DNA from: a virus
Length of the DNA stretch: 23,613 bases
Virus genome (UHGV): UHGV-0175648
Reading direction: 5' to 3' (one strand)
Below the pieces are notes generated by a model. The model was given only the letters and a program-made list of their open reading frames with translations. It was not told where the DNA came from and made no database searches. Every line of letters starts with the position of its first letter. Positions within the stretch are counted from its first letter, which is position 1. Of this stretch, positions 1-8,637 are shown one piece after another. Made by a program: the position numbers and the translations under genes.

Positions 1-990
1 TTATGTGGATGAAATGTGGATGCCTCCTTTTAACGGATTAAGTGAAATTGCATCCTGGAGGAAATCAGGAGCGAGGTGCGCATAGGTCATAGTTTGCTGG
101 ATCGTGGCGTGCCCCATAATTCGCTGGAGCGTAAGTATATTTCCTCCATTAATCATAAAGTGAGCAGCAAAGGTATGGCGTAGAACATGTACAGCCTGTC
201 CTTTTGGTAGGTCTGGCTTAACACTGCGAAGCACCTTGCGATATTCCTCATAATTGACGTCAAACAAAAGGCCGGATTTCTTTGTTTTGATCTCACTAAC
301 AACTTCATCAGAGACAGGAATAATTCGAACTTTTCCGTTTTTAGTTTTGTTAAACGTCACGCGATTATTGATGATGTGTTCCGCGCGTAGATTTTTCGCT
401 TCTCCCCATCTCGCCCCAGTACTGAGACAAAGTAGCGTAATCCGCCGGGCATCACCGCTTACTGCATCCAGCAATTTGGCGATTTCTTCCGTAGTGAGGT
501 ACGTCATTTCGGGTGATTTTCGTTTCAAAGAGGGGAGGGCGCGGAGTGGATTTTCTCCGTGAAATTCTCCGGCATTTGCCAGGAGTGTAAACATTCCTCC
601 GAGATCCGACTCATCACGCCGAACAGTAGACTCTTTTACTCCCAAAGATAAACGGGAGCTTCGATAAGCGGCCATGAAACGAGCATTAATCTGGCTAACC
701 CTTGGATCATTCATTTCTTTGATGATTTTTTTCAACCTGGTTAGAACGCCGTTAGCATATGGCTTATTGCGTCCACCCAATTCCCACCATAACGGAAGCA
801 GATCTGAGAGATGACGTTGCTCTGTTGGCTTTTCAAGCCATTCCTTATCGTGCATGTGGCTGAGAACATAACGCTCAAAGGCCACTGCATCTGCCTTTTT
901 CTTAAAAATCCGCTGAATCCGACGTCCACTTCGGCCACGCGGTCTAACATCCACTTTATACCGTCCACCATCGAGCGCTTTAATTGCCAT
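1..990 (-). CDS. int: Tyrosine recombinase, P2-type prophage integrase
   Basis: The ORF 1..1023 translation aligns along its length with P2 Int as I recall it (MAIKALDGGRYKVDVRP..., LCLSTGARWGEA, HVLRHTFAAHFMINGG, LQRIMGH, YAHLAPDFLQDAISLNPL). The start is placed at the internal ATG 988-990, which is preceded by GGAGGG about 7 nt upstream and matches the P2 Int N-terminus MAIK. The stop codon is bases 1-3. Confidence 0.93.
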   Translation of the reverse strand: MAIKALDGGRYKVDVRPRGRSGRRIQRIFKKKADAVAFERYVLSHMHDKEWLEKPTEQRHLSDLLPLWWELGGRNKPYANGVLTRLKKIIKEMNDPRVSQINARFMAAYRSSRLSLGVKESTVRRDESDLGGMFTLLANAGEFHGENPLRALPSLKRKSPEMTYLTTEEIAKLLDAVSGDARRITLLCLSTGARWGEAKNLRAEHIINNRVTFNKTKNGKVRIIPVSDEVVSEIKTKKSGLLFDVNYEEYRKVLRSVKPDLPKGQAVHVLRHTFAAHFMINGGNILTLQRIMGHATIQQTMTYAHLAPDFLQDAISLNPLKGGIHISST

Positions 991-1056
991 TGGCAAGCCC
1001 TCCGGTGAAACGAGGAAAGACATTTCCAGTTTGTAAAACGTAAGAATAATAAAGGG

Positions 1057-1359
1057 TTAACCAATTTTCCTTTCGGATGGGGGTAAGTCCGTTGGCTCTT
1101 GCCCATAGTGTGCGAGAGCCGGAGCTATCTGCCCGGATTCAGGCGCAATTTTTCCAGTCATAAACCACAACGCATATTTCTCAAATCTGGGGTTGTTTAG
1201 TATTTGCTCAATTACTTCAGCATTAGGGATAGTTTTACCGCTTTCATATCTCCACAGAGCATCACGGTTTAAACCAAGCATTTTTGCTGTATCCGGGAGG
1301 CTAGTAAGTCTCTCGCTTTCACGCATGATTTTTATGCGCTCTCCAATAGTCATACGCAT
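1057..1359 (-). CDS. C: P2 C-type immunity repressor (short HTH repressor)
   Basis: About 100 aa, similar to P2 C as recalled (…YESGKTIPNAEVIEQILNNPRFEKYALWFMTGKIAPESGQIAPALAHYGQ). It is divergent from the cox-like gene and adjacent to int. The ORF-track start at 1374 is TTG; the ATG at 1357-1359 has a GGAGA Shine-Dalgarno 8 nt upstream. Confidence 0.85.
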   Translation of the reverse strand: MRMTIGERIKIMRESERLTSLPDTAKMLGLNRDALWRYESGKTIPNAEVIEQILNNPRFEKYALWFMTGKIAPESGQIAPALAHYGQEPTDLPPSERKIG

Positions 1360-1454
1360 GTTGCAATTCTCCAACGTCTGTATTAATGTTTATACAAATG
1401 AGTTTGATTTGGGGCATCCGTCGCAAGAAATACCCCAAACAGGGAGATTATCAC
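1360..1454. promoter_or_regulatory. Divergent Pc/Pe lysis-lysogeny switch region (face-to-face promoters and operators expected)
   Basis: A 95 bp AT-rich spacer between the divergently transcribed C and cox-like genes. It contains sigma70-like hexamers (TTGCAA ... TATTAAT). The architecture is analogous to the P2 switch; promoters were not mapped. Confidence 0.5.
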
Positions 1455-2887: not shown

Positions 2888-3298
2888 ATGCACGCAAAAG
2901 AAGAAGGTATCATCAGAGCACTGAAAGAAATTTCAAAGATTGAAAGCGAAGTAGCGAAAAAAGCCGTAGCAAATACTCATATAGACGTCGCTACCCACAC
3001 AATGATAGTCGCAAAAGTCACGGCAGAAGCCGCCAAAATCATCGAAGAACAGGGTGCGGAACTTACGCTTTTCAAAACTCAACCAGTCACCGGACTGGAT
3101 TTATCTAACACCGGACGCCTTATTTACACAATTGGCTCGGAGCTACAGCGATACACCATTATCGCCGGATTACAGGGCAAATACCTGATCACTCCTCACC
3201 CCATAAGGGAATCAGAAATTCTGACAAATCTCCGCCTGATAGATCGCTCTCAAGTTGCATTCATTGATGACGCACAGCACACCGTATTTAACGCATAG
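2888..3298 (+). CDS. Hypothetical protein (136 aa)
   Basis: ORF with a GGAGA ribosome-binding site (ACGGAGATACAAAAATG). No recognisable domain. Confidence 0.5.
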   Translation: MHAKEEGIIRALKEISKIESEVAKKAVANTHIDVATHTMIVAKVTAEAAKIIEEQGAELTLFKTQPVTGLDLSNTGRLIYTIGSELQRYTIIAGLQGKYLITPHPIRESEILTNLRLIDRSQVAFIDDAQHTVFNA

Positions 3299-3309
3299 GG
3301 TTATTGGAC

Positions 3310-3324
3310 AAAAAAAGGGGGGGG
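3310..3324. repeat. Homopolymeric A7-G8 tract overlapping the ribosome-binding site of the 3327 ORF
   Basis: Direct reading: ACAAAAAAAGGGGGGGGCAATG, with 7 A followed by 8 G and ending 2 nt before the ATG. Confidence 0.9.
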
Positions 3325-3326
3325 CA

Positions 3327-3530
3327 ATGGCAATTAAGCATTTTCCCGTCGTTCGCTTTACCTCCAGAGGGCGCGAATACGAGGTCGACGAACGCCTGAT
3401 TACCACTATCGACAAACATCGTTCGGAAAAGGATGCACACCACATCTACCTCACTGACGGCACTTACTTCTGCGCCACTAATGTGGCGCGGGTAAACCTT
3501 ATCCGACAGGTACAGGAGCATCGTAAATGA
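3327..3530 (+). CDS. Hypothetical protein (67 aa), first gene of the SPFH operon
   Basis: ATG directly downstream of the A7G8 tract. Its stop overlaps the start of the next gene (ATGA). Confidence 0.5.
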   Translation: MAIKHFPVVRFTSRGREYEVDERLITTIDKHRSEKDAHHIYLTDGTYFCATNVARVNLIRQVQEHRK

Positions 3531-3745
3531 GCAGAAAGCGAATCACACGCAGGCATCGCCGCACACACATGAATTCCTTACCGACGCTGAAAGAACTCAT
3601 TCAACACGAGATCGCTGATTTCTGCGCACCGCTGGGGTCGCCTGGCGAACCGGAAACGCCAGAAGCGATGCAGCGCGAACTCATGATGCGCATCGATAAC
3701 GTTTTTGACTTTTTCCTGAATAACAAAAGAGAGCAATCAACATGA
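3527..3745 (+). CDS. Hypothetical protein (72 aa, basic N-terminus)
   Basis: Translationally coupled on both sides (ATGA overlaps at 3527 and 3742). Confidence 0.5.
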   Translation: MSRKRITRRHRRTHMNSLPTLKELIQHEIADFCAPLGSPGEPETPEAMQRELMMRIDNVFDFFLNNKREQST

Positions 3746-3945
3746 ACAAAAAGACCTGGTTTCGCGCATATATGTGGGCGCTGGTATGCGTCCTCGTCTC
3801 TCTCATTCTGTATGCAGGACTACTCCCCCGAATGATTTCATCAGACAGCTCCTTCCTGGTATTGCTGGGCATTTTCATTGCCATGCTGTACCCGGCAGGC
3901 GTTGTTCGCCTTTTCAGTAAGTACATCAAGGAAATCAAACAATGA
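3742..3945 (+). CDS. Small inner-membrane protein with two predicted TM helices (67 aa)
   Basis: Two hydrophobic stretches (WALVCVLVSLILYAGLL and FLVLLGIFIAMLYPAGVV). It is translationally coupled to the downstream SPFH gene. Confidence 0.6.
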   Translation: MNKKTWFRAYMWALVCVLVSLILYAGLLPRMISSDSSFLVLLGIFIAMLYPAGVVRLFSKYIKEIKQ

Positions 3946-4772
3946 AGAAATTCAAACTCTTTCAGATTCTCCCGCTTTTTGCCGCCATCCTGCTGGTTGG
4001 CTGCGATCGCGTTGAGCCAGGTAATGTGGGCATCAAAGTCAACAAGCTGGGCGACGACAAAGGCGTTGGCGAAGTGGTTGGCGTTGGCCGCTACTGGACT
4101 GGCTGGAATACCGAGGTTTACATCTTCCCGACCTTCAAACAAATGAAGACCTACGATGACCCGTTCAGCTTCCAGATGAGTGACGGCACAACCATCGGCT
4201 ATCACATCGGCGTGGCCTACAAGGTCGATCCATCCAAAGTTACCACAGTGTTTCAGACCTACCGCAAAGGCGTGGATGACATTACCGACACTGACCTGCG
4301 CCAGAAGATCGCCGACGCACTCAACCGACTGGCCAGCAAAATGACCACAGATAAATTCATCGACGGTGGCAAGTCTGAACTGCTGGATTCAGCACTTAAA
4401 GATATTCAGGAAGAGATGACCCCCATCGGCATTCAGGTCATGAGCCTCTCTTATGTCGGTAAACCGGAATATCCGCCAACCGTTATCGACAGCATTAACG
4501 CCAAAGTCACGGCAAACCAGAAGACCCTGCAACGCGAACAGGAAGTCAAGCAACGCGAAGCAGAAGCCAACATGTTGCGCGCAGAAGCTGCCGGACAGGC
4601 TGATGCCATTCGCACAAAAGCCCAGGCTGAAGCCGACGCCATTCGTTTACGCGGTGAAGCTCTGCGCCAGAATCCCGGCGTTATGGAGCTGGAAGCAATC
4701 AACAAATGGAACGGCACGCTACCGCAATACATGACCAGCAATACCGCTGTTCCGTTTGTTCCGGTGAAGTAA
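3942..4772 (+). CDS. SPFH/band-7 (stomatin/prohibitin/HflK-C-like) lipoprotein, predicted inner-membrane retained
   Basis: Lipoprotein signal with lipobox LLVGC followed by Asp at +2 (CDRVEPG), which is an inner-membrane retention signal in E. coli. An SPFH-like core is followed by an Ala/Glu/Gln/Arg-rich coiled-coil tail (QREQEVKQREAEANMLRAEAAGQADAIRTKAQAEADAIRLRGEALRQ). The ribosome-binding site is AAGGAAA. Confidence 0.8.
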   Translation: MKKFKLFQILPLFAAILLVGCDRVEPGNVGIKVNKLGDDKGVGEVVGVGRYWTGWNTEVYIFPTFKQMKTYDDPFSFQMSDGTTIGYHIGVAYKVDPSKVTTVFQTYRKGVDDITDTDLRQKIADALNRLASKMTTDKFIDGGKSELLDSALKDIQEEMTPIGIQVMSLSYVGKPEYPPTVIDSINAKVTANQKTLQREQEVKQREAEANMLRAEAAGQADAIRTKAQAEADAIRLRGEALRQNPGVMELEAINKWNGTLPQYMTSNTAVPFVPVK

Positions 4773-4803: not shown

Positions 4804-4934
4804 AGCAGTATCAGGATTTTTTAGTATGCCGTTCTCACAAAAAAACCGCTTGCCATGCCGCAATCAGTCAGGTTACATTTCCGCTGCACCTCATAAAACG
4901 GGTGCCGGGTTTCGCAGCCTGCTGACTACAAGAG

Positions 4935-4964
4935 CGCACAACCGCGCCAGCGGTTTTTTTGTGC
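4935..4964 (+). terminator. Rho-independent terminator-like hairpin with a T7 run
   Basis: CGCACAACCGCGCCAGCGGTTTTTTTGTGCG: the ACCGC/GCGGT stem is followed by seven T, and the outer arms CGCACAA/TTGTGCG are also complementary. Confidence 0.55.
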
Positions 4965-5814: not shown

Positions 5815-8637
5815 ATGACGGCAGAGTACATCAGGGACTGGCAACAACCGCGCCACGCAGTGGGGCGTGAAGGAACGGGGATCCCCGCTCCTGAATCCGC
5901 GCTTTCCTCCTGGCTGGATGCCTACCGGGCAGAGAACGAGCGCCGCCAGGAAATGGCTGATGCGGCGTTCTCCGCCACGCCGCTGGGCAACCTGATTAAT
6001 AAAAGCCTGGATGCACAGGAAAAACAGGACAAAACCATCACACTGGCAGGAGACGCCAGAAAACAGGCACGCGGCGCGGTGGATGAAGCCATGGCCTCGC
6101 TGCGCCTGCTGCCGTCCTATCTGCGCGATCCGCTTATTCGCCACCTCTCCTTCCTGCGCAAAAAACAGGAAGCCGATCGCCGGAAAGGCAAAAAGAGCTG
6201 GCAGGCTGAACGCTACGCGTGCGGAACCCTGCGCAAAATATTCGAACGTCTGGACCGCACCGACCACCACTGGCTGACACCGGCTTATCGCTCCCTTGCC
6301 GGACGCGAACGCCTGGATGATTTGCTTTACCTGCCGCAGCTCAACAAACACCAGATACAGACGCTGGCCACCATGACAGCGGCGATGTTCAGCAGCACCT
6401 TCGAAAAACTCTGCGATGGCTTTGGCGCGACTGATGGCGAGCTGACCATGGATGTAACGCTGAAGGCGTATCAGATGCTGGCCCGCATGGCGTTACACCT
6501 GCACGCCATGCCTCCGCATTATGACGCACTGACAACAGACAAAGACCGGAGGAACGAACCAGACACAGAACTGCTACCGGGCGCAATCCTTCGCCTGACC
6601 TGTGCGGAATGGTGGAAACGCAAACTGTGGCTGTTACGTTGCGAGTGGAGAGAAGAACAACTCCGCGCCGCCTGTCTGGTTTCCAGAAAAACATCGCCCT
6701 ATCTGAGCCAGGACGCGTTAAGCGAGTTTCGCGCACAGCGCGAGAAAACACGCGATTTCCTGAAAAGTTTCATGCTGGAAAATGAAGACGGGTTCACGAT
6801 TGATCTCGAGACGGTGTATTACGCGGGAGTAAGTAACCCGGTTCACCGTAAGGCAGAAATGATGGCCACCATGAAGGGACTGGAACTTCTGGCCGAAGCC
6901 CGTGGCGACAGAGCGGTGTTTCTGACCGTCACCTGCCCGTCAAAATACCACGCAACAACGGAGAACGGTCATCCGAACCCCAAATGGAACGGGGCCACCA
7001 TGCGCGACTCCAGCGATTACCTGGTTAACACGTTTTTTGCGGCGGTCCGCAAAAAACTGAACCGCGACGGCCTGCGCTGGTATGGCATCCGCACGGTGGA
7101 GCCTCACCATGACGGCACTGTGCACTGGCATATGATGGTCTTTGCACATCCGGACGAGATTGAAACCATCGTGTCCCACGTCTGCGATATTGCCATTCAG
7201 GAGGACCGCCACGAGCTGGGCGATGACATAACTCCGCGTTTTAAGGCGGAGTATGTCGACGGCTCAAAAGGCACACCAACCAGCTACATCGCCACCTACA
7301 TCGGAAAGAACCTGGACAGCCGCGCCGTGGATGGCATCGACCCGAAAACGGGCAAGCCACGCGTTGACCACGAAACCGGAAAATCAATGGCCGAGAGCGT
7401 GGAGCGCGCCATCGGTTGGGCACGCCTTCACCGGGTCCGCCAGTTCCAGTTCTTTGGCATCCCCTCCCGTCAGGTGTGGCGTGAACTCCGCCGCCTTGCC
7501 AGCCAGATGGCGCGCAACCCGGAAGGCCCGCAACGGCTGAAGGATGACGCAATGGATGCGGTACTCGCTGCCGCTGATGCCGGATGTTTTGCCACCTACA
7601 TAGAGAAACAGGGCGGCGTACTTGTTCCACGCAAAGACTACCTGATTCGTACCGCCTACGACCTCGCCGATGAGCTGAACGATTACGGCGAACAGAGCGT
7701 ACAGATTTACGGGATCTGGTCACCACTCATCGGGGAATCCTCCCGTGTGTGCACGCATCCGGATAACTGGAAGCTGGTAAGACGCAAACCGGAAGCGGAA
7801 GACAGCGCCCGCGAAAATGGTTTTGACCTTCAGGGCGGCCCTGCCGCCCCTTGGACTCGTGGCAATAACTGTCCCCGTGTACAGGAAACGAACAACAACG
7901 GGACAGAACAGCCGGAAGAACGGCCAGCACCGTGGCCGCAGCTCCCTGACGGCGTTGAAGTGAATGAATGGATGCGCTCACTGAAACGGCACGAACGCCG
8001 GGCGCTGATGCGTTCGCTGCGTGACAAACAGGCAAAAAACAGCAGTGATGAAATGCAGAGCTGGACACAGAGCCGCAAACAGCAGCGGCCTTTGCCTGAT
8101 AACCACGAATTACTCGCTAAAGAATGGCGGGAGTCTGCTGAATCTCTCGGCCTGCATATCGGTGAACAGCAGATGCAGCACCTGTTACGGGGCGGCAGTC
8201 TGTACGTTGACGGCAGCATCATTGCACCGCAGGGATTTGAAATTGTACGCAAACCGGATACCCGACCGGACAGCCGGATCACGCAGCTCTGGCAGCGCCT
8301 GAGCCGTAACCACGGCGTAAGCAGCACGGAGATCCGCCATAACCCGGTCGCCAGCTATCTGGAACAGCTGGGGGCATCAGACCCCGAAGCCGCCGCACGC
8401 CTGGCATCCACACTTCAGCAGGACCAGAACACCATGAAAACACCCGTTACCGTGCTTTCTGACATGCTGCGCGCCATCCGCGACGCAGAGCACGCACAGA
8501 GAATCAGTGAAACCACTGAACGCGCCCGCCGCAAAGCAGACCTGCTGCGGGGTGGCCTGACCAGTGGAAACAAAAAACAGACAGAAACGGGATTCACAAA
8601 TCCCGTAAATGAGCAAAAAACGCGCCGCGATATATGA
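5815..8637 (+). CDS. A: P2 gpA-family rolling-circle replication initiation endonuclease (940 aa)
   Basis: Contains the HUH-type metal-binding motif (EPHHDGTVHWHMMVF) and a catalytic tyrosine region (SYIATYIGKN) typical of P2/186 A proteins. It lies in the expected position after the early genes. The C-terminal roughly 300 aa is charged, low-complexity sequence. Confidence 0.92.
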   Translation: MTAEYIRDWQQPRHAVGREGTGIPAPESALSSWLDAYRAENERRQEMADAAFSATPLGNLINKSLDAQEKQDKTITLAGDARKQARGAVDEAMASLRLLPSYLRDPLIRHLSFLRKKQEADRRKGKKSWQAERYACGTLRKIFERLDRTDHHWLTPAYRSLAGRERLDDLLYLPQLNKHQIQTLATMTAAMFSSTFEKLCDGFGATDGELTMDVTLKAYQMLARMALHLHAMPPHYDALTTDKDRRNEPDTELLPGAILRLTCAEWWKRKLWLLRCEWREEQLRAACLVSRKTSPYLSQDALSEFRAQREKTRDFLKSFMLENEDGFTIDLETVYYAGVSNPVHRKAEMMATMKGLELLAEARGDRAVFLTVTCPSKYHATTENGHPNPKWNGATMRDSSDYLVNTFFAAVRKKLNRDGLRWYGIRTVEPHHDGTVHWHMMVFAHPDEIETIVSHVCDIAIQEDRHELGDDITPRFKAEYVDGSKGTPTSYIATYIGKNLDSRAVDGIDPKTGKPRVDHETGKSMAESVERAIGWARLHRVRQFQFFGIPSRQVWRELRRLASQMARNPEGPQRLKDDAMDAVLAAADAGCFATYIEKQGGVLVPRKDYLIRTAYDLADELNDYGEQSVQIYGIWSPLIGESSRVCTHPDNWKLVRRKPEAEDSARENGFDLQGGPAAPWTRGNNCPRVQETNNNGTEQPEERPAPWPQLPDGVEVNEWMRSLKRHERRALMRSLRDKQAKNSSDEMQSWTQSRKQQRPLPDNHELLAKEWRESAESLGLHIGEQQMQHLLRGGSLYVDGSIIAPQGFEIVRKPDTRPDSRITQLWQRLSRNHGVSSTEIRHNPVASYLEQLGASDPEAAARLASTLQQDQNTMKTPVTVLSDMLRAIRDAEHAQRISETTERARRKADLLRGGLTSGNKKQTETGFTNPVNEQKTRRDI

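Follow-up and report, generated by a model that had tools for sequence, protein, structure and literature searches.

A length-variable poly-A/poly-G tract in the place of a Shine-Dalgarno sequence in a P88-like Escherichia coli prophage

We describe here an A7G8 tract at the ribosome-binding site of p67, an early-operon gene of a P88-like Escherichia coli prophage. Our favored explanation, to which we assign a probability of about 0.6, is that the tract is a heritable, slippage-prone composite homopolymer that replaces the ordinary p67 Shine-Dalgarno sequence and spacer (AAGGAGG or AAGGGGG, followed by CGCA) and retunes translation on an evolutionary time scale. It is best described as having the look of a mutational tuning knob or hot spot, rather than that of a demonstrated stochastic on/off switch. 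In the mechanism we propose, the last two A residues and the first five G residues (AAGGGGG) would pair with the 16S rRNA tail 3'-UUCCUCC-5', and the leftover G residues together with the CA dinucleotide that follows would set the distance to the ATG. Slipped-strand mispairing during replication would add or remove G residues and, less often, A residues, so that lineages drift among G6 to G10. Several ribosome registers would be available on such a uniform run, giving initiation close to the ancestral level at G7 to G10 and some 10-20-fold lower at G6 or shorter; the G8 allele described here would lie on the plateau, with p67 retuned and, through coupling at ATGA overlaps, possibly p72, mem67 and SPFH as well. 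We infer both the size of the translational effect and the downstream coupling.

The window, by which we mean the whole 23,613-nt stretch that was analyzed, is a P88-like (Xuanwuvirus, P2-family) E. coli prophage that matches phage P88 over 88% of its length at 96.7% identity. The tract is situated inside a rightward early operon that runs from a Cox-family gene to the gpA replication endonuclease (5815-8637), and the features to which we refer are as follows.

1-1023, minus strand: integrase
1057-1374, minus strand: C-type repressor
2888-3298, plus strand: p136, the upstream early gene (phrog_9338), with its TAG stop 28 nt before the p67 ATG
3310-3316, plus strand: A7 run, the 5' part of the composite tract, the final two A residues of which (3315-3316) are those predicted to pair with UU of the 16S anti-Shine-Dalgarno sequence
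3317-3324, plus strand: G8 run, the hypervariable part, comprising a putative Shine-Dalgarno core GGGGG (against GGAGG, one G.U wobble) and three G residues of spacer
3325-3329, plus strand: CA spacer (3325-3326) and ATG start codon of p67 (3327-3329)
3327-3530, plus strand: p67, a conserved 67-aa early-operon protein (phrog_3459; 204-nt CDS)
3527-3745, plus strand: p72, with its ATG overlapping the p67 stop (ATGA, 3527-3530)
3742-3945, plus strand: mem67, a small membrane protein (phrog_1130), with an ATGA overlap with p72 (3742-3745)
3942-4772, plus strand: SPFH/Band-7 lipoprotein of 276 aa, with an ATGA overlap with mem67 (3942-3945)

The tract fills most of the p136/p67 intergenic gap, because the p136 TAG is only 28 nt from the p67 ATG. 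Scanning for promoters and terminators gave no candidate of either kind at or near the tract, and by analogy with P2 one would expect the genes around it to depend on the repressed early promoter for transcription and to stay silent in lysogens. Homologues of p67 occur only in Enterobacteriaceae, and p67, p72 and p136 have no Pfam, NCBIfam or PADLOC match. AlphaFold models p67 as a small all-beta domain (pLDDT 79), for which the fold matches are all non-significant (Sac7d/Sso7d-like proteins at E of at least 0.16, uncharacterised phage proteins at E of at least 0.0085). The SPFH protein matches Band_7 with E = 7.5e-31, resembles HflK/C only distantly and has no PADLOC defence-system match, and a literature search for SPFH proteins with prophages and phage defence found nothing. 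We also note that p72 resembles a deletion remnant, in that it matches Ead/Ea22-like proteins over its C-terminal two-thirds (phrog_4144, positions 34-99), and that PGAP annotates the p72-homologous stretch in relatives as an N-terminally truncated pseudogene.

The original prediction was that A7G8 at 3310-3324, 2 nt before the ATG at 3327, forms the ribosome-binding site of the gene that starts there. The position agrees exactly with the letters of the window, where the local sequence reads TAG GGTTATTGGAC AAAAAAA GGGGGGGG CA ATG GCA ATT AAG, with TTGGAC directly 5' of A7 and the allele at the p67 start being AAAAAAAGGGGGGGGCA-ATG. The assignment is likewise borne out by comparison with relatives. 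Phage P88 has AAGGAGGCGCA-ATG at the homologous p67 start, that is, a canonical AAGGAGG followed by CGCA-ATG, and the commonest allele in relatives with p136 is AAAGGGGGCGCA-ATG (93 of 150 collected loci). The position of the p67 start is conserved, as ATG or, in Citrobacter phage Shae_phiSM, as GTG, and the 204-nt CDS called by PGAP in E. coli genomes is the same one, with starts that map to 3327. The P88, common and window alleles thus share position, start codon and downstream gene, and all are complementary to the anti-Shine-Dalgarno sequence, although the window has four extra A residues and G8 in place of GGAGG or GGGGG plus CG, which makes its site 5 nt longer as well as mutationally unstable. 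AAGGGGG pairs with the 16S tail with one G.U wobble (modeled duplex energy -11.2 kcal/mol), and in the best register the aligned spacing to the ATG is 4 nt in the model. Tract lengths among the relatives are 13-18 nt and not multiples of three, so the tract is non-coding. Taken at the level of sequence, the Shine-Dalgarno and spacer assignment is supported, and the A7 run may double as an A-rich standby or enhancer stretch. A programmed frameshift on an A AAA AAG motif was considered and rejected, since the upstream ORF stops short of the tract by 12 nt and any fusion would be broken by tract lengths not divisible by three.

G8 is the only G/C run of seven or more in the 23.6-kb window. By itself it is statistically unremarkable, as a G/C run of eight or more arises in 35% of windows simulated from a first-order Markov model of the window; the composite A7G8 arose in none of 2,000 such simulations. 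The p136/p67 junction (3298-3327) is also the border of a mosaic module: many of the E. coli sequences that match the p136-p67 region do so from 3326 onward, directly before the p67 ATG, the spacer that precedes this p67 start in P88 is unrelated and 86 nt long, and the same p67 protein occurs behind differing p136 alleles with the tract either short or long.

The expanded tract marks a minority lineage, as judged from how seldom it occurs among homologous junctions. About 120 of these were recovered from IMG/VR and metagenome contigs by a pattern scan anchored in the flanks, with A3G5CG in 89, A3G5TG in 11, a few each of A3G6CG, A4G4CG, A4G5CG and A3G4CG, and long tracts in nine, such that the long tract accounts for about 8% of viral and metagenome loci. 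Two further hits, one in a Poribacteria MAG from the scan of genome contigs and one from the metagenome scan (L110), are chance matches. E. coli genomes were queried by 64-nt blastn seeded in the flanks, since BLAST's low-complexity filter masks the tract, and the p67 locus was found in 831 of 5,426 complete genomes; the 832 E. coli records with the locus comprise 19 with the long tract, 11 with an 11-nt form and about 800 with a 10-nt form. All four isolated phage genomes with the junction have the short form, and related prophages in general mostly have no long homopolymer at the orthologous position.

Within the long-tract lineage the tract is hypervariable. Pooling the scans with 14 fetched E. 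coli loci and two exact-protein look-ups gave 33 long-tract loci with 13 length alleles (A6-8, G6-10 and GAG-interrupted forms), and a further, independent allele lies outside these 13.

A7G8: 6 loci
A7GAG7: 6 loci
A7G7: 4 loci
A7G6: 3 loci
A8G7: 3 loci
A7G9: 2 loci
A8G6: 2 loci
A7GAG6: 2 loci
A7GAG8: 1 locus
A8G8: 1 locus
A8G9: 1 locus
A8G10: 1 locus (PEC41)
A6G9: 1 locus
A3G11CG, independent: 1 locus (L041)

The A run numbers six to eight residues in long-tract relatives and three or four in short-tract ones, and the G run extends from G6 to G10 among 32 long-tract relatives. Alleles differ inside each of four flanking haplotypes, and loci of the window haplotype, in which the p136 and p67 proteins are identical, carry A7G8 (six loci), A7G7 (four), A8G7 or A7G9. 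Where pairs of loci have no more than six differences per 1,200 flanking nt, the tract differs in 38 of 52 long-tract pairs compared with 8 of 86 short-tract pairs, and where the flanks are identical it differs in 4 of 9 and 0 of 20, respectively; one long-tract pair (L135 and L137) is identical over 2 kb of flank and yet carries A8G8 in one case and A8G9 in the other. The rate of tract change is about 600 times the per-site substitution rate for the long form and about 47 times for the short form, although these values are good to an order of magnitude only, as the pairs are non-independent. The earlier suggestion that G8 is prone to slippage is therefore well founded, in that A6-8/G6-10 combinations are found on near-identical flanks in related prophages, and it is in keeping with the behavior of E. 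coli, in which the indel rate climbs exponentially with run length and runs of eight G.C pairs are indel hot spots in mismatch-repair-defective lines (PMC8510543). From this length polymorphism we infer slippage as the mechanism of a heritable change in length, although simple slippage does not account for the step from A3 to A7.

The L041 allele (IMGVR_UViG_2547132488_000024, with the A3G11CG tract near 7394-7429 on the minus strand) is either an independent G expansion or an assembly error. Its flanks are 99.5-100% identical to those of the L135-L137 loci, which carry A8G8, A8G9 and A6G9, and its total length of 16 is that of A8G8, but simple slippage does not connect it with these alleles. 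Several entries among the p67 homologues (P0001, P0002, P0004, P0008, P0009, P0011 and P0014) are 84 or 88 aa long rather than 67, and it is likely that gene callers read back through the tract to an earlier start wherever the length of the tract keeps the frame open; in the window there is an in-frame TTG ORF start at 3255, upstream of p67. The tract would in this way be a cause of inconsistent gene calls, including N-terminally extended forms of p67.

The consequences of tract length for translation were estimated with a simplified and unvalidated initiation model of our own writing, which combines anti-Shine-Dalgarno duplex energy, a Salis-type spacing penalty and mRNA unfolding (ViennaRNA), and which admits contiguous helices only. 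Predicted initiation relative to the A3G5CG reference, set at 1.0, is as follows.

P88-type: 1.06
A7G8: 1.22
A7G7: 0.60
A7G9: 1.27
A7G10: 0.76
A7GAG7: 0.83
A7G6: 0.06
A8G6: 0.05
A7GAG6: 0.10

The model thus has a plateau from G7 to G10, within about two-fold of the ancestral site, that arises because a uniform G run offers the ribosome a choice of registers, and a threshold at G6 where initiation is about 10-20-fold lower. It had been proposed that slippage of the G run could switch the coupled operon on or off stochastically, but a one-base slip does not behave as such a switch in this crude model; from G8, a step to G7 or G9 should retune translation no more than two-fold with no switch-off, and the large drop, seen only at G6 or shorter, should need two deletions. 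The model also gives low initiation for the natural short alleles A4G4CG and A3G4CG, and it follows that either the model overstates the effect or the level of p67 is weakly constrained. Moreover, ribosomes that finish translating p136, whose stop lies 28 nt upstream, could reinitiate at p67 whatever the Shine-Dalgarno sequence, a route that the model ignores.

The nature of the locus nonetheless suggests an alternative that has to be considered, namely that it is a genuine contingency locus in which high-frequency, reversible slippage of the G run toggles p67 and the coupled mem67-SPFH module between high and low states, as a form of bet-hedging among lysogens or infected cells. The tract has a repeat length (G8 next to A7), an expression-relevant position and a polymorphism in excess of flanking divergence that are features of such loci. 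However, we regard this alternative as unlikely. Hypervariability among near-identical prophages speaks for it, but the tract is estimated to change no more than about 600 times as fast as a single site is substituted, and clonally related genomes share one match length, such that any switching is slow at the consensus level. If wild-type E. coli base-substitution rates apply, the tract would change at about 1e-7 per generation, orders of magnitude below classical phase variation, which proceeds at 1e-5 to 1e-2 per generation. Natural alleles do fall on both sides of the modeled threshold (seven loci of the G6 type against 25 of G7-G10), although the predicted low state is two deletions away from G8 and a one-base change has an effect of two-fold or less. 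The four genes overlap by ATGA and long tracts are associated with SPFH, with the independent G11 expansion in L041 also upstream of an SPFH gene, and yet four long-tract loci are without SPFH, there is no promoter-like site near the tract, and the early operon is expected, by analogy, to be silent in lysogens. A precedent is a 5'-UTR poly-G indel that alters translation, in espR of Mycobacterium tuberculosis (PMC11898584). A more elaborate form of this alternative is a true translational contingency locus in which slippage of the poly-G Shine-Dalgarno sequence changes the spacing to the AUG and stochastically sets how strongly the coupled small-protein/SPFH membrane module is expressed, which might serve superinfection exclusion or membrane remodelling, and selection would keep the long tract upstream of early operons that carry SPFH; we consider it slightly less probable again.

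The relationship of the tract to SPFH merits closer description, since the gene at 3327 was originally predicted to be the first of an SPFH operon. In the window p67, p72, mem67 and SPFH are indeed four same-strand genes with successive ATGA overlaps, and that part of the description stands, but p67 itself is a P2-type early-operon gene and most of the collected loci are without SPFH. No SPFH gene is found downstream of p67 in 76 of 100 short-tract and 5 of 28 long-tract loci, which have MarR/wHTH and other small genes instead, and in P88 two other genes lie between p67 and mem67-SPFH; the four genes are not a dedicated unit that is inherited together, as SPFH is absent downstream in most collected loci. 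Conversely, SPFH is present downstream in 23 of 28 long-tract and 24 of 100 short-tract loci (Fisher p = 3e-8, in a test that ignores shared ancestry and on a biased sample), and the association is specific to the compact p67-p72-mem67-SPFH layout. The association and the L041 expansion hint at selection rather than pure drift, and linkage is the simplest reading of the association. With regard to layout, we observe that SPFH starts 618 nt downstream of the tract in almost all long-tract loci (the compact arrangement), and that most short-tract SPFH loci have the P88 arrangement with wHTH and Ead genes, in which SPFH lies at +956 to +1015.

A much less probable explanation is that the length of the tract and its variation among relatives are homopolymer sequencing or assembly artefacts, an alternative that had been offered alongside the original prediction. 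G-rich homopolymers are error-prone on several sequencing platforms, and some of the outlier alleles are single (A8G10 in PEC41 and A3G11CG in L041), but the window allele is not a one-off error, as five other assemblies, which stem from different samples and pipelines, contain exactly A7G8 between the same flanks (L143, L149, L151, L152 and L153). A7GAG7 is likewise shared by six loci, five in E. coli genomes from Belgium, Japan, Tanzania and Malawi and one in an IMG/VR prophage contig, and sets of related strains (EC556/571/581, ETEC1732/1734, 639/455 and 2022S01-140/-18) give equal BLAST match length and identity. Control runs in the very same assemblies are essentially invariant, the T7 run at 4954 having length 7 in 125 of 126 loci and the A7 run at 4839 in 43 of 43.

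Equally improbable is a role other than ribosome binding, either within a promoter that would express the SPFH block in lysogens, for which TTGGAC (3304-3309) would be a -35-like element and the tract a 17-nt spacer but nothing resembling a -10 hexamer comes after it and the promoter scan is negative there, or as a regulatory RNA structure, for which the G run does pair with downstream U/C-rich codons in the minimum-free-energy fold but shuffled sequences fold just as stably as 3270-3370 (z = 0.55) and no Rfam family is present at the tract; the canonical Shine-Dalgarno sequence of P88 in the same place explains the sequence without either.

The known systems that come closest to the tract include the classical homopolymeric-tract contingency loci of Neisseria, Haemophilus, Bordetella, Campylobacter and Helicobacter. 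As in those systems, the locus has a G/C run of at least seven whose length differs between close strains and whose placement can affect expression. Classical runs lie inside an ORF, where they cause frameshifts, or in a promoter spacer, whereas here the run would be the Shine-Dalgarno sequence and spacer; the host is also a mismatch-repair-proficient E. coli, the genes belong to a prophage early operon, and tract length is predicted to act in a graded manner, with G6 as the threshold. Repeat-based contingency loci are generally considered scarce in E. coli. Gogol et al. (2007, PMC1891110) typed homopolymer tracts of Bordetella in a collection of strains as well as inside individual cultures. 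The espR indel noted above is similar in that a homopolymer in a 5' untranslated region changes length recurrently among isolates, and there the translation efficiency of espR is changed; the present run differs in that it would itself pair with the ribosome and set the spacing between the Shine-Dalgarno sequence and the AUG, with an effect that is predicted by a model. A literature search found no paper that describes the tract, and we suggest that the locus is best filed as a hypermutable 5'-leader homopolymer, unusual in being the Shine-Dalgarno sequence itself and in residing in an E. coli prophage.

As a prophage homopolymer located within a ribosome-binding site, with a mutation rate hundreds of times that of the neighboring sequence, the tract offers a natural system for studying how G-run length and Shine-Dalgarno-to-AUG spacing tune translation, and for asking whether phages diversify the expression of accessory membrane genes by means of such tracts. 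If the variation is neutral, the locus is an ordinary mutational hot spot. In practical terms, the site is a fast-evolving marker within P88-like prophages.

Two minor observations concern the region 3' of the SPFH gene. A full-length match to the Rfam family isrK (RF01394, the C4/IsrK type of prophage Hfq-binding antisense RNA) lies at 4886-4960 on the plus strand, with a score of 66.7 bits where the gathering score is 50 (E = 1.7e-13), just 3' of the SPFH gene and 5' of a 'derepression protein' gene, in a stretch that PGAP annotates in relatives as an 'ash family' pseudogene. The 3' end of the match coincides with a terminator-like hairpin (4940-4955) and T-run, and a weak match resembling the c4 a1/b1 target lies at 4873-4925. 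In addition, an intergenic T6 run at 4817-4822 is also length-polymorphic among relatives (T6, T7 and T8), unlike the other A/T runs that were checked.
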